Source: Thermodesulfobacteriota bacterium (lineage in GTDB: Bacteria; Desulfobacterota; Anaeroferrophillalia; Anaeroferrophillales; Tharpellaceae). Taken from it: a DNA stretch of 64,000 bases. The stretch is from NCBI GenBank assembly GCA_024763535.1, contig JANTFH010000001.1:7337-71336 (forward strand), in the 5' to 3' direction. Below the pieces are notes generated by a model. The model had not been told where the DNA came from. It searched no databases and worked only from the letters and a program-made list of their open reading frames with translations. Numbering within the stretch: position 1 is the first letter of the stretch; each line of letters begins with the position of its first letter. The translations under genes and the position numbers were made by a program. Shown here in pieces: positions 20,245 through 53,883 of this stretch.

Positions 20245-20366
20245 CGGGAATGTCCTTTTTCGGTGCAACCGATCTTCGCAGGGCGAAATTTGCATAAATA
20301 TGATTGTTATGGTAGAGTATTGCCTGTCTTGTTATGATGTTTTTAGGTTGGATGTCAAGAGGTATT

Positions 20367-28163: not shown

Positions 28164-28224
28164 AGACTGACTCTTGTGTTTTTTTTATCAAGCGGAAGCT
28201 ATTTTAACTTTGAAGGAGCAGGTT

Positions 28225-29103
28225 GTGAACCGGATAGTTGCAAAAGAGGAGTTCTCACAGAACCCCGGCGTTAAAATGATGCAGATTGAAGCGCCGCGTA
28301 TCGCGAGAAAGGCAAAAGGTGGCCAGTTTGTAGTTTTTCGTCTGAATGAGACTGGAGAACGGGTGCCGCTGACGGTAGCGGATACCGACCCGGAAAAGGG
28401 TCTGGTGACGATTATTTTTCAGGAAGTCGGCAAAAGTACGATGGCTCTGGGTAAACTTGAAGTTGGTGATTGTCTTGCCGATTTTATCGGGCCTCTGGGA
28501 CAGCCGACCCACATGGGTGATTACGGAACGGTACTTTGTGTTGCCGGCGGTATCGGGATTGCCCCGACCCACAATATTGTTAAGGCGTTGAAGGCTCACG
28601 GCAACAAAGTTATCTCGATTATCGGCGCCCGGACCAAGGATCTTCTCTTTTGGGAAGATAAGATGCGGGATTTGAGTGACGAACTCTATGTCTGCACCGA
28701 TGACGGTTCCTACGGAATTCATGGTCTGGTGACCAAGGTCGAAGAGGAGTTGCTCGAAAAAAGCCGGGAAAGTGGTGAGATCGGTCTGGTTATCGGCATC
28801 GGTCCTCCGATTATGATGAAATTTGTCTGCAAGACCTCAGAGCCGTTCGGGGTCAAAACCCTGGTCTCACTTCCGACAATTATGGTTGATGCGACCGGGA
28901 TGTGCGGGGCTTGCCGGGTGACGGTTGGTGGCGAGACTAAATTTGTCTGTGTCGACGGGCCCGAATTTGACGGTCATAAAGTTGATTTTGACGAGATGCT
29001 GAAACGTCAGAGTATCTATCTTGAACAGGAGAAGGTAGCGGTCGAACGCTATCGGCACGGCGACGATTGTGGTTGCTGTGATGAATGCGGAGGTAACCAG
29101 TAA
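28225..29103 (+). CDS. nfnA: NfnA/SudB-type ferredoxin-NADP+ reductase subunit (FAD/NAD-binding, [2Fe-2S])
   Basis: Start moved to GTG 28225 after an AAGGAG SD (MNRIVAKEEF...). Has the FNR-like fold and a C-terminal CGACRV...C...C 2Fe-2S cluster. TAATG overlap with the next gene. Confidence 0.8.
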   Translation: MNRIVAKEEFSQNPGVKMMQIEAPRIARKAKGGQFVVFRLNETGERVPLTVADTDPEKGLVTIIFQEVGKSTMALGKLEVGDCLADFIGPLGQPTHMGDYGTVLCVAGGIGIAPTHNIVKALKAHGNKVISIIGARTKDLLFWEDKMRDLSDELYVCTDDGSYGIHGLVTKVEEELLEKSRESGEIGLVIGIGPPIMMKFVCKTSEPFGVKTLVSLPTIMVDATGMCGACRVTVGGETKFVCVDGPEFDGHKVDFDEMLKRQSIYLEQEKVAVERYRHGDDCGCCDECGGNQ

Positions 29104-30506
29104 TGGCTGAAGAAGTTAATAAAGCAAAAAAACTGCCCCGGCACCCGATGCCGGAACAAGAGGCCAAGGTTCGTGCCCGCAATTTTGATGAGGTGCCTTT
29201 CGGCTACTCCAATGAGACGGCCATGGCGGAAGCGAGCCGTTGTCTGCGCTGCAAGAAACCGAAATGTGTTGAGGGCTGCCCGGTCAATGTCAAGATTCCC
29301 GAATTTGTCGGCCTTATTGCTGACGGTGATTTTATCGGGGCCGCGCATAAACTCAAAGAAACCAATGCTCTGCCGGCGGTCTGCGGCCGGGTTTGTCCTC
29401 AGGAGAGTCAGTGTGAATCTCGCTGTGTGTTGGCGAAAAAGGGTGAGTCGGTGGCAATCGGCCGCCTCGAACGTTTTGCCGCGGACTATGAACGGAATCA
29501 GGGCAAAATGGAATTGCCGAAGATCGCTCCGGCAAGCGGTAAAAAAGTTGCGGTTATCGGTGGCGGGCCGGCCGGTTTAACCGTCGCCGGTGATCTTGTC
29601 AAACTTGGTCACGATGTGACAATCTTTGAGGCTCTGCATAAAACCGGCGGAGTTTTGGTCTATGGCATTCCTGAGTTTCGTCTGCCGAAAGCGATCGTTC
29701 AGGCTGAGGTCGACTATCTTAAGTCTCTGGGAGTCAAAATTATTGAAAGTTATGTTGTCGGCCGGATTGAGACGGTTGATGAACTTTTAGAGCGTTTTGA
29801 TGCCTGTTTTATCGGTACCGGGGCCGGTTTGCCGGTTTTTATGAAACTTGAAGGTGAAAACCTGAACGGGGTCTATTCCGCCAATGAGTATCTGACCCGT
29901 TCCAACCTGATGAAGGCCTATAAGTTCCCTGAATATGATACTCCGATTGTTAAAGGCAAAAGGGTGGCGACCTTCGGCGGCGGTAATGTCGCCATGGATT
30001 CGTCGCGGACGGCCCTGCGTCTCGGGGCGGAGAAATCCTATATTATCTACCGTCGTTCTATGGATGAGATGCCGGCCCGTGACGAAGAGATTCATCATGC
30101 CGGTGAAGAGGGCGTTGAGTTTCTCCTGCTGGCCAATCCTGAGCGTTTGATTGGTGATGAAAAAGGCTGGCTCACCGGGGTTGAATGTATCAAGATGGAG
30201 CTTGGTGAACCGGATGAGTCCGGGCGCCGGCGGCCGCAGCCGATTCCCGGTTCCAATTTTGTGGTTGAAGTTGATACCGTGGTCGTTGCTATCGGCAATG
30301 GGCCGAATCCGCTGGTACCGTCAACCACTCCCGATCTCAAAACCAATCGCTGGGGTAATATTGACGCTGATCTGGAAACCGGCAAAACCAGTATGCCGGG
30401 GGTCTATGCCGGGGGTGATATCGTCACCGGTGCGGCCACGGTTATTGAAGCTATGGGGGCCGGGAAAAAGGCGGCCGTGGCGATTCATGAATATCTTACC
30501 AGTTAG
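29103..30506 (+). CDS. nfnB: NfnB/SudA-type (glutamate synthase small-subunit-like) NADPH-dependent oxidoreductase, 2x[4Fe-4S] + FAD
   Basis: N-terminal Cys clusters CLRCKKPKCVEGCPV and CPQESQCESRCV. GltD-like FAD/NADPH GxGxxG motifs (VAVIGGGPAG; VATFGGGNVAMD). Confidence 0.85.
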   Translation: MAEEVNKAKKLPRHPMPEQEAKVRARNFDEVPFGYSNETAMAEASRCLRCKKPKCVEGCPVNVKIPEFVGLIADGDFIGAAHKLKETNALPAVCGRVCPQESQCESRCVLAKKGESVAIGRLERFAADYERNQGKMELPKIAPASGKKVAVIGGGPAGLTVAGDLVKLGHDVTIFEALHKTGGVLVYGIPEFRLPKAIVQAEVDYLKSLGVKIIESYVVGRIETVDELLERFDACFIGTGAGLPVFMKLEGENLNGVYSANEYLTRSNLMKAYKFPEYDTPIVKGKRVATFGGGNVAMDSSRTALRLGAEKSYIIYRRSMDEMPARDEEIHHAGEEGVEFLLLANPERLIGDEKGWLTGVECIKMELGEPDESGRRRPQPIPGSNFVVEVDTVVVAIGNGPNPLVPSTTPDLKTNRWGNIDADLETGKTSMPGVYAGGDIVTGAATVIEAMGAGKKAAVAIHEYLTS

Positions 30507-30560
30507 CAGCCTGGTTATGCAAATTCGGCTGCAATTAATGCCTCATTAAGTTCGACCAAT

Positions 30561-30598
30561 AAAGAGCAATCGGTTAATGCCGGTTGCTCTTTATTTTT
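30561..30598 (+). terminator. Rho-independent terminator after nfnB
   Basis: AAAGAGCAATCGG...CCGGTTGCTCTTT followed by ATTTTT. Confidence 0.75.
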
Positions 30599-30748: not shown

Positions 30749-30777
30749 TTGACAATGTCTTTTTTATGGACTATGAG
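30749..30777 (+). promoter_or_regulatory. Candidate sigma70-type promoter for the nuo operon
   Basis: TTGACA, then a 17-nt spacer, then TATGAG, ~150 nt upstream of nuoA. Confidence 0.35.
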
Positions 30778-30927
30778 TCTCGCGATTTTCCGGTCTGAGT
30801 TGTTTTAAAATTGAGTTGCGGAGGGGGTAAGGTTCTTTGCGCGGCTAATTTTCCGGTTTATTTGTTAAGTTTAATCCTTTTTTGTCGAGTTTAATTCTTT
30901 TTTAATGTTCGGTAACAGGGGGATTTG

Positions 30928-31320
30928 ATGCCTGCTCCGCACGTCCTTGATTTTGTCTATGTTATCGTGGTTCTGGCTGGTGGTATTATCGCCGGATTCG
31001 CGCCTTTCGTAATTTCCGATATCTTTCGTCCCCGGGTAGTTAATAAGAAGACCCTGCTCACCTATGAGTGCGGGATGGATCCTTACGGCTCCGCCTGGGA
31101 TATTCGTTTCGGAGCGGCATATTATCTGTATGCCCTGATTTTTCTGGCCTTTGATGTTGATATTCTCTATCTCTTCCCGGTAGCTGCAGCCTATGATCGT
31201 GTATCCAGCATGCAGGGGGTTTTGGAACTATTTCTTTTTGTCGGAATTTTGACCCTGGCTATCGCATATATCTGGGTTAAAGGAGTTTTTACGTGGGCGA
31301 TCAAGAGAGAGGAAAACTAG
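30928..31320 (+). CDS. nuoA: NADH-quinone oxidoreductase subunit A
   Basis: ~130-aa 3-TM protein with the conserved ND3 pattern ([33 protein letters not shown]). ATG 30928 follows an AGGGGG SD. Confidence 0.9.
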
Positions 31321-31892
31321 GGGTCCACTCCTATGCAGCCGAGCTTCAGGAGCGGCTGCAGAGAGGAGAACCGGGAAATCTTGTAGTCAGAGATCCGGGG
31401 CCGCTGGTTCAGAATAAAATAGCCGATCAGATCTTCGATATCTGCCGGGCCAACTCACTCTGGCCGATGACTTTCGGGCTGGCCTGCTGTGCGATCGAGA
31501 TGATGAGTCTGGGAATGGCCCGTTTTGATATCTCCCGTTTCGGCTCTGAAGTTTTCCGGCCTTCGCCGCGCCAGAGTGATCTGATGATTGTTGCCGGTAC
31601 GGTTAATAAGAAGATGGCCTCCGCGGTGATGACTCTTTATGATCAGATGCCTTCACCCAAGTGGGTTATTGCCATGGGTAACTGCGCGATTTCCGGCGGC
31701 CCTTTTGCCGTGGGTGAGAACTATAATGTGGTTGAAGGGGTCGATAAACTGATTCCGGTTGATGTCTATGTTCCCGGTTGCCCGCCGCGTCCGGAAGGAC
31801 TGCTCGAAGGCATCCTGAAACTCCAGGAGAAAATTACCGGGGTTCGCCATCCGTTCCCCCAGAGGAAGATGTCCGATGCACCCAGCTACTGA
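31293..31892 (+). CDS. nuoB: NADH-quinone oxidoreductase subunit B (N2 [4Fe-4S])
   Basis: GTG start 7 nt after an [17 protein letters not shown], the conserved GNCAISGG-type segment and CPPRPE cluster ligands. Confidence 0.9.
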
Positions 31893-32388
31893 GAAACTTG
31901 TCAGCCTCCTTAAGGAGAAATCCTTTGCGGTTGAGGCCTGTGATTACGCCCAGCGCGGCTACCACCTCGAGATAGATCTTGAAGCGGACCGGTTACGTGA
32001 ATTGGCTCAGTGTCTGTTGGCTGAGGAGATGTATCTGGTCTTCGTCGGCGGTCTTCATGTAGCCCCGGCCATTGAAGTTGTTTATCAGTTTGCAAGTTAC
32101 GACAGAGCCTGCCGGCTGGTCGTAAGGGTGGCGGCAGACGGCGATAATAAAGTGCCGACGATCTCCGATATCTATCACGGAGCCAACTGGCATGAGCGCG
32201 AGACCCGCGATTTCTTCGGAGTCGATTTTGTCGGTCATCCCAACTTGATCCCGCTGATTCTGGCCGAAGAGGATGTCGATTTAAAGCCTCTGTTGAAAGC
32301 AGATGATGACCTGAAAGAGTCAGCGGCGTTGCGCTGGGTTACTGTGGAAGAGCAACCTGAAACCGAAGAGAAGGCGGATAAGGACTGA
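31876..32388 (+). CDS. nuoC: NADH-quinone oxidoreductase subunit C
   Basis: 170 aa, NuoC/30-kDa-subunit core ([21 protein letters not shown]). Confidence 0.85.
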
Positions 32389-33524
32389 TGGAAACTGCAC
32401 AGCTAAATCTGGAGCCGGCAACTGATATCCCGCACGATAATCGCTACTATCTTAATATGGGGCCGCAGCATCCGAGTACGCACGGGGTACTGCGGGTTCT
32501 TCTGGAGATGGACGGTGAATATATCATCAATCCGCAGCCGGTCTTAGGTTATGGCCACCGGATGCATGAGAAGATGGCCGAGCATAAAAACTGGATGGCC
32601 TTCATGCCCAATACCGGGCGCATGGATTATGCCGCGGCCCTGCCCTATAATCATGGTTATGTCGCCCTGTATGAACGGCTCTGCGGCATTGAGGTTCCGG
32701 AGCGGGCCGAATATATCCGCGTCATTACTTCGGAGTTGAACCGACTGGTCAGCCATCATCTCTGGCTCGGGGCATTTCTGCTTGATCTCGGGGCCTTCAC
32801 CCCGATCCTCTATACCTTTATCGACCGGGAAAAGGTTCTCGATATTCTTGAAGACATTACCGGTTCGCGCCTGACTTACTGTTACTTCCGGGTCGGCGGC
32901 GTAAGTAAGGATATTGACGATAAATTTGTCGAACGCACCCGTGAATTCATCAAGTATCAGCGGCAGCGTTTTGATGTTTACAACAAACTGGTGACCGGTA
33001 ATATTATCTTCATCAAGCGGGCCGAAGGGGTCGGGGTCATCAGCAAGGATATGGCCTTGCGTTACGGGGTTACGGGGCCGGTGGCCCGGGGTTCCGGTAT
33101 CAATTACGACGTTCGTAAAAATGAGCCCTATTCGGTTTATTCCAAGTTTGATTTTGAGATTCCGTTAGGTCAGAACGGTGATTCGCTTGATCGTTACATG
33201 GTCAGGTTGAATGAGATGGAACAGAGCCTGAGGATTATTGAGCAGGCTCTGGATCAACTGCCGGAGGGCCCTTACCTGGCAAAGGCTCCGAAAAAGCTGA
33301 AAATGCCGGTTGGTGATTCCAGCTTCTCGGTTGAGGCGGCCCGCGGTGAGTTGACCTATTATATGATCAGCGGCGGCGGCGATATTCCCTATCGTCTTAA
33401 AATCCGGGTGCCCTCATATTCAAATCTAAGTGTCCTGCCCGAATTGGGTCAGGGAATCCTGCTTTCCGATCTGGTTACGGCAATGGGGAGTCTGGATCTG
33501 GTAATCCCCGAGATTGATCGATAG
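32388..33524 (+). CDS. nuoD: NADH-quinone oxidoreductase subunit D
   Basis: 378 aa, 49-kDa subunit motifs (GPQHPSTHGVLRV; RIIEQAL...; C-terminal VIPEIDR). ATGA overlap with nuoC. Confidence 0.9.
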   Translation: METAQLNLEPATDIPHDNRYYLNMGPQHPSTHGVLRVLLEMDGEYIINPQPVLGYGHRMHEKMAEHKNWMAFMPNTGRMDYAAALPYNHGYVALYERLCGIEVPERAEYIRVITSELNRLVSHHLWLGAFLLDLGAFTPILYTFIDREKVLDILEDITGSRLTYCYFRVGGVSKDIDDKFVERTREFIKYQRQRFDVYNKLVTGNIIFIKRAEGVGVISKDMALRYGVTGPVARGSGINYDVRKNEPYSVYSKFDFEIPLGQNGDSLDRYMVRLNEMEQSLRIIEQALDQLPEGPYLAKAPKKLKMPVGDSSFSVEAARGELTYYMISGGGDIPYRLKIRVPSYSNLSVLPELGQGILLSDLVTAMGSLDLVIPEIDR

Positions 33525-33634
33525 TTTGTGAACTGAGCCATTTGTAGTACTCTTTAGTAAAAGGTACTTATTTGCGGGCTGAAAAGGCCGTCTTAAGGTT
33601 GCGGGGTTGGTTCCCGCATTAGTGGAGTAGTGAT

Positions 33635-34603
33635 ATGCCCCCTGAGTTGTTACGTATGATCATCGCCGCCGTGCTGGTGGTGGCCTTTGTTTTCTTGAAC
33701 GCCATGATCTTAGGTTACATGGAGCGTAAGGTTTCGGCTCATATTCAGCGTCGTCCGGGATTGATGGAAGTCGGCCCGCACGGGGTACTGCAGTTGATTA
33801 TTGATGGCCTGAAACTGATCGGTAAACAGCTGGTCGTGCCTGAAGGCTCGAACCGCTTCCTGTTTCGTCTGGCCCCGCTGCTCTCTTTTGCTCCCTGTGT
33901 GTTGCCGTTTGTTGTAATTCCTTTCAGTAAGAAGTTGCAGATTGTTTCAATGGATATCAGCCTGATATTCATTCTCGCCATGACCTCAATCAATGTTATC
34001 GCCATTCTGGTTGCGGGCTGGGCCTCAAACAACAAATATTCACTCTTTGGTACCTTTCGTTCCGTCGCCCAGGCGGTCTCCTACGAGATTCCGATGCTGC
34101 TCTCTCTGCTCTCGATTATTTTGATGACCAGTACTTTCAGTCTGCAGGGGATTATCGCGGCCCAGAAATATTACTGGTTTATTCTGGTGCAGCCGCTGGC
34201 TTTTATCATCTACTTTGTCTCCGGTCTGGCCGAGACCAACCGGGCGCCTTTCGATATACCTGAAGCCGAGAGTGAGTTGACGGCCGGTTTTCATACCGAG
34301 TACAGCGGTATGGGTTTCAGCTTTTTCTTTCTTGCAGAATATGCCAACATGTTTACCGTCTGTTCCATCGCGACGGTGCTATTTTTGGGCGGCTGGAAGG
34401 GTATCCCGCTGCCGTTGGGTGATTTTACCGGTATTGTCTGGTTTCTGCTCAAGGTCTATGGCCTGCTTTTTGTCATGATCTGGGCTCGTTGGACTTATCC
34501 CCGGGTGCGTTTTGATCAATTGATGAGTTTCTGCTGGAAATATTTGATCCCCTTCGCCCTGGCTAACCTTCTCATTACAGCGGTAGTGGTTAAACTGATA
34601 TGA
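33635..34603 (+). CDS. nuoH: NADH-quinone oxidoreductase subunit H
   Basis: 322-aa 8-TM ND1 homolog (MERKVSAHIQRRPG...; AETNRAPFDIPEAESELTAGFHTEYSG). Confidence 0.9.
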   Translation: MPPELLRMIIAAVLVVAFVFLNAMILGYMERKVSAHIQRRPGLMEVGPHGVLQLIIDGLKLIGKQLVVPEGSNRFLFRLAPLLSFAPCVLPFVVIPFSKKLQIVSMDISLIFILAMTSINVIAILVAGWASNNKYSLFGTFRSVAQAVSYEIPMLLSLLSIILMTSTFSLQGIIAAQKYYWFILVQPLAFIIYFVSGLAETNRAPFDIPEAESELTAGFHTEYSGMGFSFFFLAEYANMFTVCSIATVLFLGGWKGIPLPLGDFTGIVWFLLKVYGLLFVMIWARWTYPRVRFDQLMSFCWKYLIPFALANLLITAVVVKLI

Positions 34604-35079
34604 GCAAACGAGGATATTTTGGTGAACTCTGGTTCGGCGCCAAGAGTTTGCTGATTGGTCTGAAAGTGACCATAGTCGAGATGTTTAAGCCGATTGTTAC
34701 GGTTCAGTACCCGCGCGAAGAGTGTGATATCACACCCAACTACCGCGGCCACATTGAGCTGGTTTTTAATTCGGAAACCGGTGGCAGCAACTGCATTGTC
34801 TGCGGTTTATGCGCCCGGGCCTGCCCTTCCGACTGCATTATTGTCGAAGGTGAGAAAAAAGAGGGTGAAAAACGAAAAACCTTAACCCGGTTTTCTCTTG
34901 ATTTTACTAAATGCAGTCTTTGTGGCAGTTGTGTTGAGGCTTGTAATAAATCGGCTATTGACTATTCACAGGATTACAATATCGCTGGATTCAGCCGCGA
35001 AGAGTTTCACTACGATCTCATCGAGCGGCTCAATCGCCGGCATATCCAACCCTTTGCTGCGGCCGCCGGAGGCAACTGA
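34600..35079 (+). CDS. nuoI: NADH-quinone oxidoreductase subunit I (2x[4Fe-4S] ferredoxin-like)
   Basis: CIVCGLCARACP and CSLCGSCVEAC motifs. Confidence 0.9.
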   Translation: MSKRGYFGELWFGAKSLLIGLKVTIVEMFKPIVTVQYPREECDITPNYRGHIELVFNSETGGSNCIVCGLCARACPSDCIIVEGEKKEGEKRKTLTRFSLDFTKCSLCGSCVEACNKSAIDYSQDYNIAGFSREEFHYDLIERLNRRHIQPFAAAAGGN

Positions 35080-35603
35080 TGGTTTACGGAACCTTTACTG
35101 AAGTTTTCTTCTATCTTTTTGTCACTCTGATTGCTTTTGGGGCCCTGGTGGCGGTGACTTCACCGATCCTGATGAAAGCGGTAATGGGGCTGGCAATGGC
35201 GATGTTCGGGGTTGCCGGACTCTACCTCTATCTTAACAGCCCGTTTCTGGCGCTGATGCAGATTCTTATCTATGTCGGAGCGGTTTGCATCATGATTGTT
35301 TTCGGGATTATGGTCGGCTATACGCCGAAACAGCTGGCTGAATATGCGATCGGGCCGAAAAATACGGTTCTGGCGATTGTGACCTCGCTCCTGACTGTCG
35401 GGGTGCTGGCCTTTGCTCTGGTTAAAACCCAATGGGTAGAGGTGGCCGGTGCGGGTGCCGGCGATTACAGCCTGGCGCATCTGGGTGAAACCCTGATGAC
35501 CCGTTACGGTCTGGCTTTTGAACTTATCTCGGTTGTTCTCATGATTGCTATGGTCGGTGCGGTAGCGATTACCTGGAACGGCAAACGTAGGGGGATCAAG
35601 TAA
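35079..35603 (+). CDS. nuoJ: NADH-quinone oxidoreductase subunit J
   Basis: 174-aa ND6-like hydrophobic protein between nuoI and nuoK. Confidence 0.8.
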   Translation: MVYGTFTEVFFYLFVTLIAFGALVAVTSPILMKAVMGLAMAMFGVAGLYLYLNSPFLALMQILIYVGAVCIMIVFGIMVGYTPKQLAEYAIGPKNTVLAIVTSLLTVGVLAFALVKTQWVEVAGAGAGDYSLAHLGETLMTRYGLAFELISVVLMIAMVGAVAITWNGKRRGIK

Positions 35604-35918
35604 GTGATTAGTTATACTCTTCATACCTATCTGTTAATTGCCGTCTTTTTGCTGGCTGCAGGTTTGTACGGCATGATGCAGCATCGTTCATTGATCGGCA
35701 TGCTGATCTCAATCGAGTTGATCTTAAATGGTGCCGGACTTAATTTCATGGCCTTTAACCGTTTTTTAGCTCCGGATCCGACTACCGGACAGATCTTTAC
35801 ACTTTTTATTATGGGCCTGGCCGCAGCGGAAGCAGCGATAGCTGTCAGTCTGATCTTTGCGGTCTACCGGAAATATAAAACATCCGATCCCGAGCAGATT
35901 TCCGATCTGCGCGGTTAG
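35604..35918 (+). CDS. nuoK: NADH-quinone oxidoreductase subunit K
   Basis: 104-aa ND4L-like 3-TM protein (GLYGMMQHRSLIGMLISIELILNG, conserved Glu). GTG start abuts the nuoJ stop. Confidence 0.85.
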   Translation: MISYTLHTYLLIAVFLLAAGLYGMMQHRSLIGMLISIELILNGAGLNFMAFNRFLAPDPTTGQIFTLFIMGLAAAEAAIAVSLIFAVYRKYKTSDPEQISDLRG

Positions 35919-35942
35919 CGGGGATAGAGGTTATAAATAGAT

Positions 35943-37436
35943 ATGGATACAATTATTACCAGTAAAGTCCTGCTGACCTCAGCCTTGCCGATGTTGACGG
36001 CCCTGCTTATCATGTTCTCCGGCAAGAGGCCGAATCTGCGGGAGTCGTGGTCGGTGATTGGTGCGATTCTGACCTTTCTCTCCGTCTTAAGTCTCTTGCC
36101 GCATATTCTGGCGGGCGGCTCTTACGAGTTCACTCTGGCGACTCTCTATCCCGGAGTCAATATCAAGTTTCACCTTGATGGTCTGGGAATTCTCTTTGCC
36201 GGGACCGCATCATTTCTCTGGATTCTGGCCGGTTTCTACTGTATCGGTTATATGCGGGGCCTGGATGAGCACGCGCAGACCCGGTTTTATGTCTGTTACG
36301 CGGTTGCGGTCGGGGCGGCGATGGGCGCCGCGTTTGCCGGCAGCCTCTTTACCCTCTATCTCTTTTATGAGATCGTTTCCATCTTTACCTATCCGCTGGT
36401 AGCCCATCATCAGGATGCCGAGGGCTATGCCGGGGCCAAGAAATATATTGTCTATCTGATGTTTACCTCAAAGGCGTTTCTGCTGCCGGCAATGGTAATC
36501 ATCTTTATGCAGTGCGGCACCCTCGATTTCTGCTACACCGGGATTCTCAACGGTATCTTTCCGGCCGGGGCTAATCACACGCTGGTGGTGGTCTCCTATC
36601 TGCTCTGTCTCTTCGGTTTTGCCAAAGCCGGGATCATGCCTCTGCATAACTGGCTGCCTTCAGCCATGGTGGCGCCGACTCCGGTCAGTGCCCTCCTGCA
36701 TGCAGTTGTCGTGGTAAAAGTCGGGGTCTTTTCAACCTGCCGGGTTATGCTGTCGGTATTCGGTGTGCAGATGTTGCAGAGTCTCAACCTAGGCATAATA
36801 ACCGCCTATTTTGTTTCGTTTACCATAATAACCGCTTCGATAATTGCTTTGAGTAAAAGCAACCTTAAAGCCCGGCTGGCATATTCGACTATCAGCCAAC
36901 TCTCCTATATCATTCTCGGTGTGGCGATGCTGACTCCGAGCGGGATTACCGGTGGTCTGGTTCATATTGCCAACCACGCTTTCTCCAAGATTACCCTCTT
37001 TTTCTGCGCTGGCGCCATCTTTGTCGCCACCGGCAAAAAGGATATCAAGGAGATGGGCGGTTTAGGTTACCGGATGCCGCTGACCATGATCGCTTTCGGG
37101 ATTGCTTCGTTGAGTATGATCGGGGTGCCGCCTTCATGCGGTTTTGTGACCAAATGGTTTCTCGCTTTGGGAGCGATGGAGCTGAAGAGTGTCGGTTTGC
37201 TGGTTGTTTTGCTGGCCAGTAGTTTGCTGAACGCCGGTTACTTTGTGCCGGTGTTCCTGAAAGCCTTTTTTGGTAAAGTTGCCCCGGCGGATGCGGAAAT
37301 GACCGGTTCGCTTGAGAATAAACCGTTGATCCTTTTTATGGTGGTGCCGCTGTTGATTACTGCGATTATTTCAATGGTTATCGGTATCTATCCGGATCTC
37401 TTTCTTAATATTATACATGTAATGGTGGGAGCATGA
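35943..37436 (+). CDS. Additional Mrp/NuoM-type antiporter-like subunit inserted between nuoK and nuoL
   Basis: 497-aa polytopic protein of the NuoL/M/N/MrpD superfamily (AYSTISQLSYIILGV; LHNWLPSAMVAPTPVSALLHA). It lacks the long C-terminal amphipathic helix of NuoL. Confidence 0.7.
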   Translation: MDTIITSKVLLTSALPMLTALLIMFSGKRPNLRESWSVIGAILTFLSVLSLLPHILAGGSYEFTLATLYPGVNIKFHLDGLGILFAGTASFLWILAGFYCIGYMRGLDEHAQTRFYVCYAVAVGAAMGAAFAGSLFTLYLFYEIVSIFTYPLVAHHQDAEGYAGAKKYIVYLMFTSKAFLLPAMVIIFMQCGTLDFCYTGILNGIFPAGANHTLVVVSYLLCLFGFAKAGIMPLHNWLPSAMVAPTPVSALLHAVVVVKVGVFSTCRVMLSVFGVQMLQSLNLGIITAYFVSFTIITASIIALSKSNLKARLAYSTISQLSYIILGVAMLTPSGITGGLVHIANHAFSKITLFFCAGAIFVATGKKDIKEMGGLGYRMPLTMIAFGIASLSMIGVPPSCGFVTKWFLALGAMELKSVGLLVVLLASSLLNAGYFVPVFLKAFFGKVAPADAEMTGSLENKPLILFMVVPLLITAIISMVIGIYPDLFLNIIHVMVGA

Positions 37437-37702
37437 TGGCTAAAGTTTTAGGTTATCTGCAGGCACATGCAAATGTCTTGAAATGGATATTTTTTGCTTT
37501 TCTGCTCGGGACTCTGGTGTTCGACTTTATGATCGAGAGACATCACGCGCATTTCTGGGGTGACTCTATAATCGGATTCTGGTCCCTGTTTACACTTTTC
37601 GGCTGTCTCGGCATGATAGTTTTTTGCAAGGGACTCTCGCACGTCTGGCTGGCCCAGCCTGAAGATTTCTACGATAGAGAGGATTCTGATAATGTTGAGT
37701 AA
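37433..37702 (+). CDS. Small 2-TM membrane protein embedded in the nuo operon
   Basis: 89 aa, two hydrophobic helices (WIFFAFLLGTLVFDFMI; IGFWSLFTLFGCLGMIVF) and an acidic tail. Start overlaps the upstream stop and the stop overlaps the nuoL start. Confidence 0.5.
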   Translation: MMAKVLGYLQAHANVLKWIFFAFLLGTLVFDFMIERHHAHFWGDSIIGFWSLFTLFGCLGMIVFCKGLSHVWLAQPEDFYDREDSDNVE

Positions 37703-39461
37703 TACGATTTTACTTCATCCCGCCTCCTATTTTATTATTGGAGCTTTTCTGCTGCCGTTGTTCAGCCGGGTCAGGATTGCCCAGAAGGTGATTCTGCTGG
37801 CAGTGCCGCTTCTGGCCTTCTGGCAGATTCATTATCTGCCGGAAAGTTTCGGTATCTGTCATTTCATGGGGTTTGAGTTGACCTTCGGTCGGGTCGATAA
37901 ATTGACCTATGTCTTTCTTCATGTCTTTACCCTGATGGCTTTGATCGGAGCGATCTACTGTCTTCATGTTAAAGAGACAGGGCATCATATAGCGGCTTTT
38001 CTTTATGTTGCCGGGTCTTTAGGAACAACTTTGGCCGGGGACTACCTGACAATTTTTATCTTTTGGGAACTGATGGCCTTTGCCTCGGTTTTCCTGATCT
38101 GGTACCGCAAGAAAAAACGCTCGATTGAGGCCGGTTATCGTTATCTTCTGGTCCATACCGTCGGCGGACTGATTCTTCTGGCCGGAATTTTCTTACGCTA
38201 TAAGAATTGTCACGATTTGACTTTTACGCGAATCCTGGCGGAGGGAGCGACGACAGCTGATTACCTGATTATGATCGGTTTTATGCTCAATGCTGCAGTA
38301 CCGCCGATTCACGCCTGGCTGCCTGATGCCTATCCCGAAGCCACTGTGGCCGGGGCCGTGTTTATGTGTGCCTTCACCACGAAAACGGCGGTTTATGTGC
38401 TCGCCCGGGGTTTCCCCGGATTTGAGATGCTGGCGATTTTGGGCGCGATTATGACTCTTTACGGGGTCGGCTACGCCGTTATCGAAAATGACGCCAGACG
38501 AATTCTGGCCTACCATATTGTCAGTCAGGTCGGATACATGGTCTGTGGTATAGGCATCGGTACGGCCATGGCAGTCAATGGTGCCTGTGCTCATGCCTAC
38601 GCCCATATTCTCTACAAAGCTCTGCTCTTTATGGGGGTCGGTGCGGTGCTGGAGATGACCGGCAAATCCAAACTCAATGAGCTTGGCGGACTCTATAAAA
38701 CCATGCCGGTAGCTCTTTTCTTTACCGTGATCGGCGGAATCGCGATTTCGGGATTCCCCCTGACCAGCGGATTCATCAGCAAATCGATGATTATTGCCGC
38801 TGCCGGGGTAGATCACCGGGTTATTATCATGCTGATGCTGAGTCTGGCAGCAGTCGGGACCTTCCTTTCGGTCGGCATCAAGCTGCCTTATTTTATCTGG
38901 TTCGGTAAAGATTCCGGAGTTAAAGGCAAAGAAGCCCCCTGGAATATGAACCTGGCGATGGCAATAGCCGCATTTATGTGCATCTTTTTGGGCGTCTATC
39001 CTGAATATCTTTATAAAATGTTGCCGTTTGCCTGTGATTATCATCCCTATTCAGCCTACCATATATCGGAAACCCTGCAGATTCTTGGCTTTACAGGTCT
39101 GGGTTTCTATCTGATGGTCAACTATCTTCATCCAGATCCGAAAAGCAATCTTGATGTCGACTGGTTTTATCGCAAAGGGGCCCTCGTTTTTATGTGGTGT
39201 GCCCGGAAACCGATCAGTATTGCCAACGACTGGGTCGGCGAGGTTTACCGGACGGTGGGTATGCGTTTTACCATGCTCGTGGCCAAAGCTCTCTCCTGGT
39301 TTGACTGGGAAGGGATCGACTGGGCTGTAGACGGTTCCGCCAAAGGCGTGGTTAAAGGTGGCGATCAGATACGGGCTCTGCAGACGGGTAAAATCCAGCA
39401 GTATGTCGGCGGCGCGGTGGCGGCGCTGATGATTGTTCTGCTGGTAATCGTCTTTCTCTAA
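37692..39461 (+). CDS. nuoL: NADH-quinone oxidoreductase subunit L
   Basis: 589-aa antiporter-like subunit. Has a C-terminal long amphipathic segment (DWVGEVYRTVGMRFTMLVAKALSWFDWEGIDWAVDGSAKGVV) followed by a terminal TM helix, i.e. the NuoL horizontal helix plus TM16 architecture. Confidence 0.8.
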   Translation: MLSNTILLHPASYFIIGAFLLPLFSRVRIAQKVILLAVPLLAFWQIHYLPESFGICHFMGFELTFGRVDKLTYVFLHVFTLMALIGAIYCLHVKETGHHIAAFLYVAGSLGTTLAGDYLTIFIFWELMAFASVFLIWYRKKKRSIEAGYRYLLVHTVGGLILLAGIFLRYKNCHDLTFTRILAEGATTADYLIMIGFMLNAAVPPIHAWLPDAYPEATVAGAVFMCAFTTKTAVYVLARGFPGFEMLAILGAIMTLYGVGYAVIENDARRILAYHIVSQVGYMVCGIGIGTAMAVNGACAHAYAHILYKALLFMGVGAVLEMTGKSKLNELGGLYKTMPVALFFTVIGGIAISGFPLTSGFISKSMIIAAAGVDHRVIIMLMLSLAAVGTFLSVGIKLPYFIWFGKDSGVKGKEAPWNMNLAMAIAAFMCIFLGVYPEYLYKMLPFACDYHPYSAYHISETLQILGFTGLGFYLMVNYLHPDPKSNLDVDWFYRKGALVFMWCARKPISIANDWVGEVYRTVGMRFTMLVAKALSWFDWEGIDWAVDGSAKGVVKGGDQIRALQTGKIQQYVGGAVAALMIVLLVIVFL

Positions 39462-39531
39462 GCCCTGGAGCTGAATATTTATTTGAATGATTGATTAATT
39501 CGTCGAGATGAAATCTTAAGAGACTTTGATT

Positions 39532-41136
39532 ATGCACATGGAAAAATATCTGATCTTAAATACCTTGAGCTACCCGGTTCTGTCGCTGATTATGCTGGTT
39601 CCGCTGGTGGGTGCGCTGCTGAGTCTTCTGATAAAAAATGAGACCTGGTTAAAGATCTTCGGACTTCTGGTGACGCTGGTTACTCTGGTGCTGTCGCTGC
39701 CGCTCTATACCTGCTTTGATCTGCATACGGCCAAATATCAGTTCGCCGAGCTTCGGCACTGGTTTCCCCTGCTTAAGCTGCATTACGTAGTCGGGGTTGA
39801 CGGTATCAGTGTGCTGCTGGTTCTTCTGACGACGATTATCATGCCTTTCTGCATTTTATGTTCCTGGAACTATATCAAAAAGCGGATGGGTGAGTTTATA
39901 TTTGTGACGCTGGTTATGGAGACTGCCATGATCGGGGTCTTTATCAGTCTGAATACGGTGCTCTTTTATATCTTCTGGGAAGCGATGTTGATTCCGATGT
40001 TCCTGCTGATCGCTGTCTGGGGCGGAGCCCGCAAGGATTATGCTTCAATCAAGTTTTTCCTCTACACTCTATGCGGCAGTATCTTCCTGCTGGTGGCAAT
40101 TGTCGCCCTCTATATTAAAACCGGAACCTTCTTTATCCCGGAGTTGATGGATCAGCCCTTCTCTTTTGCCTATCAGATGTGGATCTTTCTGGCCTGCGCT
40201 CTGGCTTTCGCCATCAAGATTCCCATGTATCCGCTCCATACCTGGCTACCGGCCGCTCACGTTGAAGCCCCGACCGCCGGCAGTGTTATTCTGGCAAGTA
40301 TCCTGTTGAAGATGGGCGGCTACGGTTTCTTGCGCTTTTGTCTGCCTATGGCGCCGGCGGCAACCCTCTACTGTATGCCGTATTTTATCGCTCTTTCACT
40401 TATCTCCATTATATTCGGCGGCTATCTGGCTTTAGGTCAGACCGACATCAAGAAGCTGATTGCTTACTCCAGTGTCGGTCACATGGGTTTCGTTACCCTC
40501 GGTATTTTCCTCTTAAATGATCAGGGTCTGAAAGGTGCGATCCTGCAGATGATCAACCATGGGATCACTACCGGCGGCCTCTTCATCATGGTCGGCATGA
40601 TTTACGAGAGAACCCACAGTCGTGAGATTGCCGACAACTCGGCATTGGGGATGATGATTCCGATTTACGTGACATTCCTGGGTATCTTCTGTCTCTCGTC
40701 ACTGGCTTTTCCGGGAACCAACAGTTTTGTTGGAGAATTCCTGGTGCTCTTCGGGGCTTTCAAGAAGAGTGTCGTGGTCGGTTTCCTGGCAATCCCCGGA
40801 GCGATTCTGGCTGCCGCCTACATGTTGCGTCTTCTGCAGCGGATGGTCTGGCACGATTCCGACGGGCATGCTCATCATGATTCCGCGGGTGATGATCACG
40901 GTCATAAGTTGACTGACCTCTGTTTTCGTGAGATCGTAATGGTGGTGGTTCTGGCAGTATTTGTCTTCTGGATCGGGCTCTATCCGACTCCGCTGCTGAA
41001 GGTGATGGATGCCAGTGTTACCCACCTGCTGCATCAGATTACAGCCGGAGGAACTCCGGCACCGGTTACCCCGCATGAAGGTCATCACGCTCTGCTTGAG
41101 ATCGGCAACTGGTTGAAACAGGTTGCAGCTTTTTAG
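39532..41136 (+). CDS. nuoM: NADH-quinone oxidoreductase subunit M
   Basis: ND4-like (WLPAAHVEAPTAGSVILASILLKMGGYG; AYSSVGHMGFVTLGI). Start ATG 39532 preferred over the upstream TTG. Confidence 0.85.
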   Translation: MHMEKYLILNTLSYPVLSLIMLVPLVGALLSLLIKNETWLKIFGLLVTLVTLVLSLPLYTCFDLHTAKYQFAELRHWFPLLKLHYVVGVDGISVLLVLLTTIIMPFCILCSWNYIKKRMGEFIFVTLVMETAMIGVFISLNTVLFYIFWEAMLIPMFLLIAVWGGARKDYASIKFFLYTLCGSIFLLVAIVALYIKTGTFFIPELMDQPFSFAYQMWIFLACALAFAIKIPMYPLHTWLPAAHVEAPTAGSVILASILLKMGGYGFLRFCLPMAPAATLYCMPYFIALSLISIIFGGYLALGQTDIKKLIAYSSVGHMGFVTLGIFLLNDQGLKGAILQMINHGITTGGLFIMVGMIYERTHSREIADNSALGMMIPIYVTFLGIFCLSSLAFPGTNSFVGEFLVLFGAFKKSVVVGFLAIPGAILAAAYMLRLLQRMVWHDSDGHAHHDSAGDDHGHKLTDLCFREIVMVVVLAVFVFWIGLYPTPLLKVMDASVTHLLHQITAGGTPAPVTPHEGHHALLEIGNWLKQVAAF

Positions 41137-41197
41137 ATAGTGATTCGTAACTGCTATTAAAACGAATTATCGATATTTTTAATTACAGGTAATTAAA

Positions 41198-42622
41198 ATG
41201 CAAGTAATGCTTATTCTTCCGGAGCTTGTCCTGATCCTTACGGTGCTGGTTCTTTTTGCGGCGTCTCTGAAAAAAATCAAGGGCGGCGGTTTAACCGGTA
41301 TTGCCCTGGTCGGATCGTTTTTAACCTTGGTCGCTACCGTACTTGGGGGGACGGCCTCCGGAAGTCTGTTTGCCGGAGCCTATCAGCTTGATGCGCTTTC
41401 ACAATTAATAAAATTTCTTCTGGGAGGCGGTCTTTTCCTGATATTCTTCATGTGCCGCAGCTTAAGCGGCATTGAAGAGGAGATGCAGAATGAGTTTTTT
41501 CTGTTTCTCAGTTTGAGTGCCCTGGGCCTGATGATGATGAGCAGCGCGGTCGAACTGCTGACGATTCTGGTCTCTCTGGAGATCTCATCTTATGCTCTCT
41601 ATATTGTTATCTCTTTCCGTAAAGGCGAAGGCCGGCGGACTGAGGTTGAGGCCGGGATTAAATATGTACTCTTCGGGGCAGCCGCAACCGGCATATCTCT
41701 TTTCGGCATCAGCTATATTTTCGGTTTGACTCATTCAACCTATCTGATTGACATAAGTGCGCAGCTGCCGAAACTTATTCATCATCAACCCCTGGCAGTA
41801 ATCGGGATGGTTTTGATGCTCTGTAGCTTTTTCTATAAGCTGGCGATGTTTCCGATGCACGCCTGGACACCGGATATCTATCAGGGGGCCTCGAATGAGA
41901 CAACCACCTTTATCGCGACCCTGCCCAAGGTTGGTGCGGCGGCTCTGTTGATTCGTCTGGTCAGCATGACCGGCACCGGGGTTACTGAATTTACCTGGGT
42001 GCTGGTAGTTCTTGCGGTACTTTCTATGAGTTTTGGTAATCTCGCAGCTCTGGTGCAGAATGATATCAAGCGCCTCCTGGCCTATTCGAGTATCGCGCAT
42101 GCCGGTTATATGATGATCGGCCTGTTGAGTGGTAATCAGCTGGGTATGGCAGCCGTGATCTACTATATTGCCGGTTACGTACTCATGAATCTGGCCTGCT
42201 TTGTGGTGATCTACTATATTGCTCCCCGGGGCGAGAATATTACTTTTGAGGATCTTAAAGGACTCTACCGGCGTTCGCCGATACTTGCCTTTACCCTGGC
42301 GGCCGGAGCCTTTGGTATGGCCGGGATTCCACCGACGGTTGGTTTTACAGGTAAATTCGTCATCTTTACGGCCGCCCTCGAAAAGGGGTTTTACGGTCTG
42401 GTTGTGATAGCCATGGTCAATGCCGCCGTTTCGGCTTTCTACTATTTGAAATTGGCCCGGGCCGTCTATTGTCAGGGTGAAGAGGGCGAACTCGAAAGTA
42501 TCAAACTGGGAATCGGCGCTAAGATATTCGGCATTTTCCTGATTGCTGCGATTGTGTTCGTGGGGATTATGCCCCAGGGATTACTGCAGATGGCCGATCA
42601 GGCGGTAGCGGCGCTTTTATAG
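41198..42622 (+). CDS. nuoN: NADH-quinone oxidoreductase subunit N
   Basis: 474-aa ND2-like last subunit (AYSSIAHAGYMMIGL). Followed by a strong terminator. Confidence 0.85.
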   Translation: MQVMLILPELVLILTVLVLFAASLKKIKGGGLTGIALVGSFLTLVATVLGGTASGSLFAGAYQLDALSQLIKFLLGGGLFLIFFMCRSLSGIEEEMQNEFFLFLSLSALGLMMMSSAVELLTILVSLEISSYALYIVISFRKGEGRRTEVEAGIKYVLFGAAATGISLFGISYIFGLTHSTYLIDISAQLPKLIHHQPLAVIGMVLMLCSFFYKLAMFPMHAWTPDIYQGASNETTTFIATLPKVGAAALLIRLVSMTGTGVTEFTWVLVVLAVLSMSFGNLAALVQNDIKRLLAYSSIAHAGYMMIGLLSGNQLGMAAVIYYIAGYVLMNLACFVVIYYIAPRGENITFEDLKGLYRRSPILAFTLAAGAFGMAGIPPTVGFTGKFVIFTAALEKGFYGLVVIAMVNAAVSAFYYLKLARAVYCQGEEGELESIKLGIGAKIFGIFLIAAIVFVGIMPQGLLQMADQAVAALL

Positions 42623-42650
42623 CCTGAATGTAGTCTGTTTGATTCGTGAT

Positions 42651-42688
42651 AAAAAAAAGGGCAGTTTCCACTGCCCTTTTTTTTATCC
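42651..42688 (+). terminator. Rho-independent terminator ending the nuo operon
   Basis: AAAAAAAAGGGCAGTTTCCACTGCCCTTTTTTTT. Confidence 0.85.
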
Positions 42689-49475: not shown

Positions 49476-49545
49476 GTCTAACGTTCAGGATCACGGGATG
49501 AGAAACGCGCGCGTTTCTCAGTACCGTGGGTCCTCTTGTTCGCCA
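49476..49545 (-). repeat. attC-like recombination site / hairpin overlapping the 3' end of the methylase gene
   Basis: Minus strand reads GGCGAAC-aagag-GGACCCACGGTACTGAGAAACGCG|CGCGTTTCTCATCCCGTGATCC-tgaac-GTTAGAC. This fits R''-5nt-L''/L'(imperfect, bulged)-5nt-R', with GTTAGAC matching the GTTRRRY core. The mate heptamer GTCTAAC recurs at 48101-48107 after the permease. Confidence 0.4.
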
Positions 49546-50351
49546 TTTTTTTTCAGGTAATTTGAAATTACTACCTCGGTAGTTCCTTTTCTGTGTTTTG
49601 ACGAAGACGCGAGCCGACTGAACCTACGTACCGTCATCTGTTGCCAATATTTGGCTTGATACAATTCGTGAATGCAGTGGTGGTCTGCATTGGATATGAA
49701 AATACTTACTCCGCGTCTGGCAGCTTTCGCAAGACAAGCTGCAAGGCGTTGTTGGTCAGCCCATGAGAAGATACGTTCATTATACTTGAGAAAGTTATTA
49801 TTGTTATGGCGTACGGTATAGGGAGGGTCTATATATAAGAAATCACCAGTATGGGCTTGATCTATTGTGTCTGCAAAATCGCATGAGGAAAGGTTTGTGT
49901 TTTGCAAAAGAGCGGACACTTCTTCAAAATTATCTGATGGTAGAACGACCTTCTCTTTTGTTCCTTTCGGAACATTAAAGACACCCTGCAAATTGACCCT
50001 GTAGAGGCCGTTAAAACATGTTCGATTCAAATATATGAACCTCGCGGCCTGCGTGGCTATCGACTGCGGAGATTGCTGCCGAATATGGTAATAGTAATCA
50101 TGGCAGTGCAATCGGTGATGTGTCAGGAGATGACGTTTCACCCTGCCAGGCACATCTCGCAATGCTTTGTAGGTAGATATTAATTCCTCATTAAGATCAG
50201 ACAGGATTGCAACCTTGGGTTGCAAGTGAAAGAATACCGCTCCACTGCCTAAAAATGGCTCAATATATCTTTTTGCATTCTGTCGTAGCCATGTGTCGTA
50301 CCCGGATACAAGCCAACGCTTGCCTCCTGCCCATTTTAAGAATGGTGTCAT
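49518..50351 (-). CDS. Dam-like N6-adenine DNA methyltransferase (D12 class)
   Basis: N-terminus FLKWAGGKRWLV...EPFLGSGAVF and catalytic DPPY (LYIDPPYTV), collinear with E. coli Dam. Confidence 0.85.
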   Translation of the reverse strand: MTPFLKWAGGKRWLVSGYDTWLRQNAKRYIEPFLGSGAVFFHLQPKVAILSDLNEELISTYKALRDVPGRVKRHLLTHHRLHCHDYYYHIRQQSPQSIATQAARFIYLNRTCFNGLYRVNLQGVFNVPKGTKEKVVLPSDNFEEVSALLQNTNLSSCDFADTIDQAHTGDFLYIDPPYTVRHNNNNFLKYNERIFSWADQQRLAACLAKAARRGVSIFISNADHHCIHELYQAKYWQQMTVRRFSRLASSSKHRKGTTEVVISNYLKKNGEQEDPRY

Positions 50352-52678: not shown

Positions 52679-52857
52679 GTCATTTATCTCCTCTATTTGT
52701 GGCGAACATTGTTAATAACTGGAAAAAGTATGTTATATTTTATAACTGTACGATTTTTCCATAAAATTCGATATCAAATTTAGAGACATGGAAGAATCTT
52801 TCCATGCTATCAATTTTCTCTAAGTCCATCTCTTTGTTGTAGTGCTACCACATACAT

Positions 52858-53135: not shown

Positions 53136-53199
53136 AGGTTTTATCTCCCACCTTTTTATATAAGAAAATTCCGGCCGAAAATTTTTTTTATCACCTCTC

Positions 53200-53841: not shown

Positions 53842-53883
53842 TAATAATTTTAGGCGAAAACTTTATTAATGGAGGTTTGAGTC

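Follow-up and report, generated by a model that had tools for sequence, protein, structure and literature searches.

What kind of complex I is produced by an operon in which the NADH-input module (N-module; NuoE, NuoF and NuoG) is missing, and in which the position of NuoL is occupied by two antiporter-like subunits with a small membrane protein encoded between them? This question is raised by a nuo operon of 13 closely packed genes, located on the plus strand at positions 30925-42622 of a 64-kb stretch of DNA from a Thermodesulfobacteriota bacterium of the Tharpellaceae (contig JANTFH010000001.1; the whole stretch is hereafter called the window). The two antiporter-like subunits, of 497 and 589 amino acids (aa), are referred to as D1 and D2, and the 89-aa protein encoded between them as the small protein. 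Judging from the sequence, we hold with moderate confidence that the operon would encode a quinone-reducing proton pump of the complex I type, in which an 11-subunit core devoid of NuoL is combined with a D1-small-D2 module, the N-module is lacking, and a ferredoxin-type carrier serves as the electron donor.

Gene content and catalytic core of the operon

Gene calls in the window were based on an open reading frame (ORF) listing and on Pfam and NCBIfam scans, which place the complex I core set (NuoA, B, C, D, H, I, J, K, M and N) in a single cluster, with D1 plus D2 at the position of NuoL. The gene order given in a preliminary description of this DNA, nuoA-B-C-D-H-I-J-K, a 497-aa subunit, an 89-aa ORF, a 589-aa subunit, nuoM and nuoN, is confirmed for every gene by the Pfam assignments. 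The operon begins with nuoA (30925..31320, with a probable ATG at 30928; Oxidored_q4, 1.1e-26), followed by nuoB, whose product carries cluster N2 (31293..31892; Oxidored_q6), nuoC (31876..32388; Complex1_30kDa), nuoD, encoding the quinone-site subunit (32388..33524; Complex1_49kDa, 3.7e-94, and NF004739, 437 bits against a cut-off of 360), nuoH (33635..34603; NADHdh, 1e-118), nuoI, encoding a subunit with two 4Fe-4S clusters (34600..35079; Fer4 families), nuoJ (35079..35603; Oxidored_q3) and nuoK (35604..35918; Oxidored_q2). In the case of NuoI, the NCBIfam NuoI models are the best ones but remain slightly under their cut-offs (TIGR01971, 110.1 bits, cut-off 113.05). The genes for D1 (35943..37436), the small protein (37433..37702) and D2 (37692..39461) come next, and the operon ends with nuoM (39526..41136) and nuoN (41198..42622). 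NuoM is 37% identical to its Escherichia coli counterpart, conserves the Glu of transmembrane helix (TM) 12 as Glu404, and is the only protein of the operon that passes the NuoM model (TIGR01972, 583.9 bits); NuoN shares 28% identity with E. coli NuoN and reaches 354 bits with TIGR01770 (cut-off 332.6).

Terminator-like hairpins are found on both sides of the operon, one at 30558-30595 (plus strand; 17-bp stem, 4-nt loop and T-run), which separates it from an upstream nfnAB pair, and another at its 3' end, at 42648-42687 (plus strand; 18-bp stem followed by a T-rich tail). No RNA element was detected in the leader of the operon with Rfam. A possible promoter (TTGACA, 17 nt, TATGAG) is present at 30750-30778, ~150 bp 5' of nuoA; the consensus scan missed it because its -10 hexamer ends in G.

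The residues required for catalysis are conserved. Thus, NuoB keeps the four cysteines of cluster N2, including the tandem CC (C65, C66, C131 and C163, equivalent to C63, C64, C129 and C158 of E. coli NuoB), the quinone-site His and Tyr of NuoD are H32 and Y81 (H224 and Y273 in E. coli NuoCD), and both CxxCxxCxxxCP 4Fe-4S motifs of NuoI are kept in the alignment. Since all these sites are intact, the predicted enzyme is a quinone reductase and not a hydrogenase.

A further observation concerns the N-terminus of NuoB, which in the window and in Desulfuromonas thiophila has an extension of ~25-30 residues, opposite a gap in the NuoB of Sinorhizobium meliloti. This extension might contribute to donor docking in the form lacking the N-module.

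The D1-small-D2 module and its relatives

D1 and D2 both contain the Pfam domain Proton_antipo_M, and each of them matches end to end an NCBIfam equivalog of its own, NF006236 in the case of D1 (744 bits, cut-off 663) and NF009310 in that of D2 (741 bits, cut-off 564). The NuoL, NuoM, MrpA and MrpD models give only 140-200 bits with these proteins, those of NuoL (170-192 bits) being far under their cut-offs (407-556). The identity in a MAFFT alignment is 22% between D1 and D2, and 20% between each of them and NuoM. The idea that D1 could be a recent duplicate of NuoM is ruled out by this identity (20%) and by the family scores, and the duplicated antiporter subunit mentioned in the preliminary description does not apply if a NuoM copy was meant, D1 and D2 being 20% identical to NuoM and together replacing NuoL. 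The number of antiporter-like subunits also has to be revised, since the operon encodes four of them (D1, D2, NuoM and NuoN) and not a fifth pumping-type subunit, as had been claimed; a total of five holds just for the proton paths, with the NuoH/A/J/K channel included.

Among PDB sequences, D1 is best matched by MbhH, MrpA and NuoL, and D2 by MbsH' (6u8y_X), MbhH and MrpD. Thus, the closest structures to both subunits are found in the MBH and MBS complexes of Pyrococcus (MbhH, 6cfw_H; MbsH', 6u8y_X) and in Mrp antiporters (MrpA/MrpD), and MbsH' carries a helix HL and TM15-16 (PMC8165549). Unlike those systems, the operon of the window has no Na+ module (homologs of MrpB/E/F/G), and its catalytic NuoD is of the quinone type, not of the NiFe or sulfane-reducing type. 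A hydrogenase, MBH or Mrp identity, to which the best PDB matches could have pointed, is ruled out by the quinone-type Q-module and by the absence of the Na+ module.

All four antiporter-like subunits, NuoM and NuoN included, have a nearly complete charged axis. That of D1 is complete (E143 in TM5, K228 in TM7, K259 in TM8, H341/H345/K349, and K404 in TM12), and this subunit lacks a lateral helix. In D2, the axis residues E126 (TM5), K231 (TM8), H301/H305/K309 and K364 (TM12) are all invariant, and the TM7 position, a Lys in NuoL, NuoM, NuoN and D1, is occupied across the D2 family by an Asn (Asn200), which is invariant in 37 homologs and also present in S. meliloti and D. thiophila. The C-terminus of D2 comprises TM15 (~457-478), a lateral helix (~479-566) and a last helix (567-589), and aligns with TM15, the lateral helix and TM16 of NuoL, with which it has in common the motif IDGxVNG...LRxLQTG. 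Only secondary structure was taken from the AlphaFold2 model of D2, built with 37 homologs of at least 75% identity, which was poor (pLDDT, the predicted score in the local distance difference test, of 52, and <50 in the C-terminus). The protein had been called a nuoL product with a horizontal helix; the helix is indeed there, with a NuoL-like last helix, but the protein itself is not NuoL, as its NF009310 score indicates. The segment from the TM12 Lys to the C-terminus is 225 aa long in D2, compared with 214 aa for E. coli NuoL and 257 aa for a canonical NuoL encoded in a related locus (L025, see below), so the lateral helix of D2 has an ordinary length, without the ~26-aa insertion of the 2M complexes.

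The distribution of the operon was studied by scanning one genome per GTDB species; 80 loci were returned, of which 79 were tallied and annotated by BLAST against the proteins of the window. The order A-B-C-D-H-I-J-K-D1-small-D2-M-N was found in all 49 loci long enough to hold the whole operon, and the shorter ones show the matching part of the 13-gene order. The carriers include Desulfuromonadales, Desulfobacterales, Geoalkalibacter, Desulfobotulus, Pelovirga, Desulfuromusa and relatives of Candidatus Tharpella; an identical 13-gene operon is present in Desulfuromonas thiophila, and the nearest genome is the metagenome-assembled genome (MAG) S015_14 (WFRP01000252), with 97% identity in the small protein, followed by that of a Ca. 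Tharpella sp. (89%), which places the window in a Tharpellota-like lineage. The arm in its form without N-module is therefore common in public genomes of Desulfobacterota and Tharpellota. In one Desulfobacterales MAG (L025), a second, canonical nuo cluster (NuoL-NuoM-NuoN; 15221-20243, minus strand) lies convergently ~5 kb downstream of the D1-small-D2 operon, which indicates that at least some carriers own two versions of complex I.

The small protein has no match in Pfam, NCBIfam, PDB sequences or Foldseek. Its ORF overlaps both neighbours, by 4 nt (ATGA) at the D1 stop and by 11 nt at the D2 start; the former overlap is conserved in 55 loci, and 16 more show one of 1 nt. Every complete genome locus, as well as S. 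meliloti, keeps the ORF in this position between D1 and D2. Twenty-five clusters of homologs were found at 55-90% identity, a profile search raised the figure to 653 clusters, and 588 clusters (50% identity) came out of an exhaustive profile search covering 1.84 billion representatives. The proteins of the best 150 of these 588 are all 49-201 aa long, and no fusion to an antiporter-like protein was found among them. In five distant members, encoded on short metagenome contigs, a D2 ortholog (38-55% identity) comes directly next, and D1 precedes wherever upstream sequence exists. In gap-free alignments with 13 relatives, substitutions at codon positions 1, 2 and 3 amount to 146, 62 and 466, and the codon changes to 351 synonymous and 210 non-synonymous. 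Since the substitutions gather at third codon positions, the small ORF is evidently a genuine gene under purifying selection. It had been proposed that a lack of conservation and a poor coding signal in this ORF would speak against its significance; the 588 clusters and the 146/62/466 bias show the opposite.

An AlphaFold2 model of the small protein (42 homologs; pLDDT 71) predicts a helix at residues 2-11 and TM helices at 13-33 and 49-74. The loop between the TM helices holds a conserved RHxxHFWGD motif, the acidic tail ends in a conserved EDYYD, and the invariant or nearly invariant residues include D31, R36, H40, F41, D44, K66, G67, H70 and Y80. Within the operon, this protein seems to be the only element apparently undescribed, and it represents an unnamed, widespread family with strict co-occurrence with D1 and D2. 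Thus, of the small novel peptide of the preliminary description, the novelty stands insofar as the family is unnamed, but the protein is not unique to the window.

According to the account of Yu et al. 2022 (PMC9040806), which cites Degli Esposti & Martinez-Romero 2016, the rhizobial green complex I has two MrpD-like subunits in place of NuoL. A tblastn search against plasmids revealed D1-like genes, ~54% identical, on Sinorhizobium and Rhizobium megaplasmids. The cluster of S. meliloti pSymA (NZ_CP021819.1, 577886-592313) is annotated as nuoJ-nuoK-"antiporter subunit D family" (487 aa)-hypothetical (84 aa)-"Na+/H+ antiporter subunit D" (586 aa)-nuoM-nuoN-nuoA-B-C-D-E-F-G, and it contains the same block nuoK-D1-small-D2-nuoM-nuoN as the window. 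The identity between both systems is 54% for D1 and 52% for D2, in both cases over the full length, and 50% for NuoM, and a two-sequence comparison of the small protein with the 84-aa WP_003526961 gave 30% identity (E=3e-10). They also have in common the 4-nt overlap between the D1 stop and the start of the small ORF, and the missing Lys in TM7 of D2. The differences lie in the order of the genes (J-K-D1-small-D2-M-N-A-B-C-D-E-F-G, with nuoEFG, in S. meliloti, and A-B-C-D-H-I-J-K-D1-small-D2-M-N, without N-module, in the window), in the core subunits, which are more divergent than the module (39% identity for NuoD, 29% for NuoJ, 33% for NuoK, and 31% or 33% for NuoN with MAFFT or BLASTP, respectively), and in the quinone, probably ubiquinone in the rhizobial hosts and menaquinone here.

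No canonical NuoL was found in the operon, where the D1 and D2 pair, orthologous to the rhizobial one, stands between nuoK and nuoM. As far as sequence can classify it, the operon belongs to the green complex I type, already described, in a form devoid of N-module, and its design is not new. The combination of features had been presented as a novelty; the K-D1-small-D2-M-N block of S. meliloti pSymA, and the presence of the 13-gene form in at least 49 loci, speak against it.

Other known complexes share only part of these traits. The 11-subunit complexes devoid of N-module (those of sulfate reducers, NUO11 of green sulfur bacteria, Fpo without FpoF, and cyanobacterial NDH-1) likewise lack NuoEFG, conserve an intact Q-module with N2, and are presumed to use a ferredoxin-type donor; however, they possess only one canonical NuoL/NdhF/FpoL, with a total of three antiporter-like subunits, whereas here there are D1, the small protein and D2, and four antiporter-like subunits. 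In the 2M complex I of Nitrospira there is an extra NuoM and a ~26-aa lateral-helix insertion in NuoL (Chadwick 2018, as reported in PMC9040806 and PMC7419157). This enzyme resembles that of the window in its fourth antiporter-like subunit and, according to the same reports, in the fifth proton per cycle that has been proposed for it. However, its extra subunit is a second NuoM, whereas the one found here is not NuoM-like (20% identity, with a family of its own), and instead of a lengthened helix the window combines an ordinary one with a dedicated small protein. Complex_I_3 of Manganitrophus (PMC9040806) has, as in the window, two MrpD-like subunits related to the pair of the green complex I, but it adds up to five pump subunits (two MrpD-like, two NuoM and one NuoN), with a 26-aa insert in MrpD2; a single NuoM, and no insert, are found in the window.

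Electron donor, proton stoichiometry and organisation of the membrane arm

No NuoE, NuoF or NuoG was found in the window, either in Pfam and NCBIfam scans of the large ORFs or in tblastn searches using their counterparts from E. coli and S. meliloti (E<=0.01), in agreement with what had been noted previously, and there were 0 matches within 10 kb in the 79 related loci. Nor did any universally conserved neighbour appear in these loci as an electron-input partner, the neighbours varying by clade. Nuo without NuoEFG is the rule in sulfate reducers, most of whose genomes lack NuoEFG altogether (PMC4046663), and an EFG-less nuo cluster, of 13 genes by its locus-tag range, is upregulated in Desulfurivibrio dismutans during sulfur disproportionation (PMC12142623). 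With no N-module in reach and one extra antiporter-like subunit, the earlier proposal of a ferredoxin-type donor other than NADH, together with a raised H+/e- ratio, is reasonable; the coupling to Nfn that accompanied it is unsupported.

In the mechanism we propose, a low-potential carrier, most likely reduced ferredoxin, would donate electrons to NuoI, from which they would be transferred via N2 to menaquinone, while the four antiporter-like paths and the NuoH/A/J/K path would together translocate ~5 H+ per 2e-. The enzyme could also run in reverse, with the proton gradient driving the reduction of ferredoxin from menaquinol. With textbook potentials, the transfer from ferredoxin (~-420 to -450 mV) to menaquinone (-74 mV) yields ~0.7-0.75 eV per 2e-, equivalent to ~5 H+ at 140-150 mV, and that from NADH (-320 mV) yields ~0.49 eV per 2e-, equivalent to ~3 H+. 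Thus, with menaquinone as acceptor, five protons would be affordable from ferredoxin but not from NADH, in agreement with the lack of NuoEFG here and with its being encoded in rhizobia, which use ubiquinone.

Some points weigh against this proposal, the first of them concerning the donor. Donor, quinone and stoichiometry are inferred for the whole family, and S. meliloti pSymA joins the same D1-small-D2 arm and nuoE, nuoF and nuoG in one cluster, which indicates that this arm can work with NADH. In addition, nuoEFG is encoded in a separate operon in some bacteria, such as Desulfurobacterium (PMC12724263), the enzyme is labelled "NADH dehydrogenase (complex I)" in the paper on Tharpellota (PMC9213671), and the coverage of the genome here is 64 kb. 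The operon could accordingly belong to an ordinary NADH:quinone oxidoreductase with NuoEFG encoded elsewhere in the genome, in which the extra subunit would raise the H+/e- ratio as proposed for rhizobia. We consider this quite unlikely, taking into account the lack of NuoEFG in the window, around the related loci and in most sulfate-reducer genomes (PMC4046663), and that the ~0.49 eV per 2e- released by NADH with menaquinone would be too little for five protons at a normal gradient.

With regard to the membrane arm, in the proposed ferredoxin-dependent pump D2 would stand at the NuoL position, beside NuoM, with its lateral helix clamping NuoM and NuoN, and D1 would be the outermost subunit of the arm, too distant for that helix to reach. 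Since a helix of normal length spans D2, NuoM and NuoN, and not a fourth subunit, NuoN-NuoM-D2-D1 would be the simplest order. The order of the genes, D1-small-D2-M-N, would then mirror the distal-to-proximal order of the subunits, as L-M-N does in ordinary operons. The small two-helix protein would be a stoichiometric subunit placed at or near the D1-D2 junction, keeping D1 in place; it is a candidate for this role because it is always encoded between D1 and D2 and is translationally coupled to both.

The remaining points against the proposal refer to this arrangement. The alternative order N-M-D1-D2 is possible, and D1 has the canonical Glu/Lys pair that normally faces the TM12 Glu of NuoM. 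Moreover, the Asn200 of D2 may mean that its proton path is altered. On this basis, the functions of NuoL could have been split without gaining a pumping site, D1 providing the proton path and D2 acting mainly as a lateral-helix scaffold, with 4 H+ per 2e-. The absence of the TM7 Lys in D2, with Asn conserved as far as S. meliloti and D. thiophila, agrees with such a division, as does the fact that the D1 core is nearer to E. coli NuoL than that of D2 (27-29% vs 24% identity; tblastn 114 vs 109 bits), yet lacks a lateral helix. However, the invariance of E126, K231, H301/H305/K309 and K364 in D2 is hard to reconcile with a pure scaffold, and MbsH of Pyrococcus, which is held to be a proton path, also lacks this Lys, with E219 in its place (PMC8165549). 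Because of this precedent, Asn200 alone does not mean that D2 is inactive, and we regard this split, with no pumping site gained, as decidedly unlikely.

Going one step further, we tentatively suggest that the small protein is an obligatory, undescribed subunit that fastens D1 beyond the lateral helix, which would represent a second, mechanically distinct way to lengthen the arm besides the helix insertion of the 2M complexes, and that the N-module-less form is a ferredoxin:menaquinone pump translocating 5 H+ per 2e-; as a whole, this proposal is possible but less than probable. If true, the N-module-less form would be the anaerobic entry into the menaquinone chain with the highest ratio. To our knowledge, neither a structure nor a measured stoichiometry is available for any complex I with four antiporter-like subunits. 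The mechanism by which a fourth pump is attached and coupled could be studied in this operon family, which offers a compact version of 13 genes. The window is one more instance of a common and already catalogued design, but the operon is widespread, including the cultured Desulfuromonas thiophila, Desulfobotulus and Geoalkalibacter, and its small protein has been left as "hypothetical" by annotation and overlooked in genome papers. In metabolic models it should be considered that the enzyme is probably not NADH-oxidising, and that it may conserve more energy per ferredoxin than assumed.

NfnAB, other neighbouring genes and further features of the window

Upstream of the nuo operon, and also on the plus strand, the window contains an nfnA-type gene (28174..29103), encoding a FAD/NAD-binding 2Fe-2S subunit (Pfam DHODB_Fe-S_bind and NAD_binding_1), and an adjacent nfnB-type gene (29103..30506), encoding a GltD-like subunit with two 4Fe-4S clusters and FAD (Pfam Fer4_20 and Pyr_redox_2). 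Both proteins score above the family cut-offs, with 401.6 bits for NF004862 (cut-off 220) and 601.7 bits for TIGR01316 (cut-off 471.75). The alignment of the nfnA-type protein starts at residue 19, its orthologs located 5' of the nuo operon in loci L005-L007 and L015 are 292-300 aa long, and its true start lies probably ~17 codons 3' of the TTG. This architecture, which is also common to SudAB-type and glutamate-synthase-like enzymes, points to an NfnAB-type pair, which may have an electron-bifurcating transhydrogenase activity. The earlier observation of nfnAB upstream of the operon, with its own terminator, is correct in both the subunit architectures and the hairpin, the latter lying at 30558-30595 rather than at 30561-30598. 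The gap between nfnAB and the nuo operon is 330 bp and contains this hairpin; nfnAB is a separate transcription unit.

It had been suggested that the pump is coupled to Nfn, and NfnAB could even dock on it as the electron-input module. This idea finds some basis in the location of nfnAB directly upstream of the operon, with the same orientation, both in the window and in 7 related loci, and in the GltD-type flavoproteins that replace NuoI in some mbx-like operons (PMC4758237). However, of the 44 orthologous loci whose sequence extends for 3 kb or more upstream of nuoA, 37 lack this linkage, and the 7 with nfnB upstream (L004-L007, L015, L018 and L020) all belong to the clade of the window. Even in L008, a close relative, nfnAB is not found upstream, and in the Desulfuromonadales loci it is an aminotransferase and a transketolase that precede nuoA. 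A strong terminator-like hairpin and the 330-bp gap separate both units, NuoI is present and intact, and the characterised NfnAB enzymes, as is generally known for this family, are soluble ferredoxin-dependent transhydrogenases. Docking is thus extremely unlikely, and a physical Nfn-Nuo complex is not supported. A shared ferredoxin/NAD(P)H pool is plausible and represents a likelier link than physical partnership; in the mechanism proposed above, NfnAB would be a separately transcribed soluble enzyme sharing these pools, and not a docking module.

NfnAB would have a different role if the complex worked mainly in reverse, so that the gradient drives electrons from menaquinol to ferredoxin, the fourth antiporter-like subunit adds force, and NfnAB passes the reducing power to NADPH. 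A reverse function has been proposed for the Nitrospira 2M and Manganitrophus complexes with extra pump subunits (PMC9040806), the degradation of benzoyl-CoA and fatty acids, which has been predicted for the Tharpellota (PMC9213671), can require low-potential ferredoxin, and nfnAB adjoins the operon in the clade of the window. However, the sequence indicates no direction, and the same operon is present in Desulfuromonas and Desulfobacterales, with different lifestyles and no nfnAB nearby. A mainly reverse function, which we hold to be unlikely, would in any case be the other direction of the same mechanism and not a different machine.

In other carriers, the neighbouring genes are those related to mercury methylation. 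In 11 Desulfobacterales loci (L033, L040 and 9 others among L025-L075), hgcA and hgcB lie upstream of the orthologous nuo operon, on the same strand and directly 5' of it, with a median distance of ~260 bp between hgcB and nuoA. Examples are hgcA at L033:1512-2576 (NF040863, 463 bits) and hgcB at L040:2847-3191 (NF040864, 115 bits). hgcA and hgcB are the mercury-methylation genes, HgcB being ferredoxin-like, and the adjacency of hgcB to a complex presumed to depend on ferredoxin could be either significant or fortuitous.

With respect to the arm itself, a distant metagenome relative (L085:73-3641) encodes a small protein of 118 aa and D2, followed by a protein that is nearer to NuoN (35%) than to NuoM (26%). 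The contig ends at this point, and it may encode a variant of the arm devoid of NuoM.

Three other regions of the window, all of them on the minus strand, should be mentioned. At 9588-14255, a 1555-aa subtilase with PA, Fn3-like and PKD domains is encoded, which is probably a secreted or cell-surface protease. At 17152-20295, a 1047-aa fusion of unusual architecture combines a radical SAM domain, an ArsM-like methyltransferase (NF008823, 202 bits, under the cut-off) and a DUF5714/MbdU-like metal-binding domain, and could be involved in organoarsenic or metal(loid) methylation. Finally, at 49518-52678, a Dam-type N6-adenine methyltransferase (PF02086) is encoded beside a 776-aa DGQHR-domain protein (DndB/DpdB-like, TIGR03187); a stretch of low guanine-plus-cytosine content extends over ~50000-54000 (~43% vs ~51% elsewhere), and the region looks like an acquired DNA-modification or defence islet.

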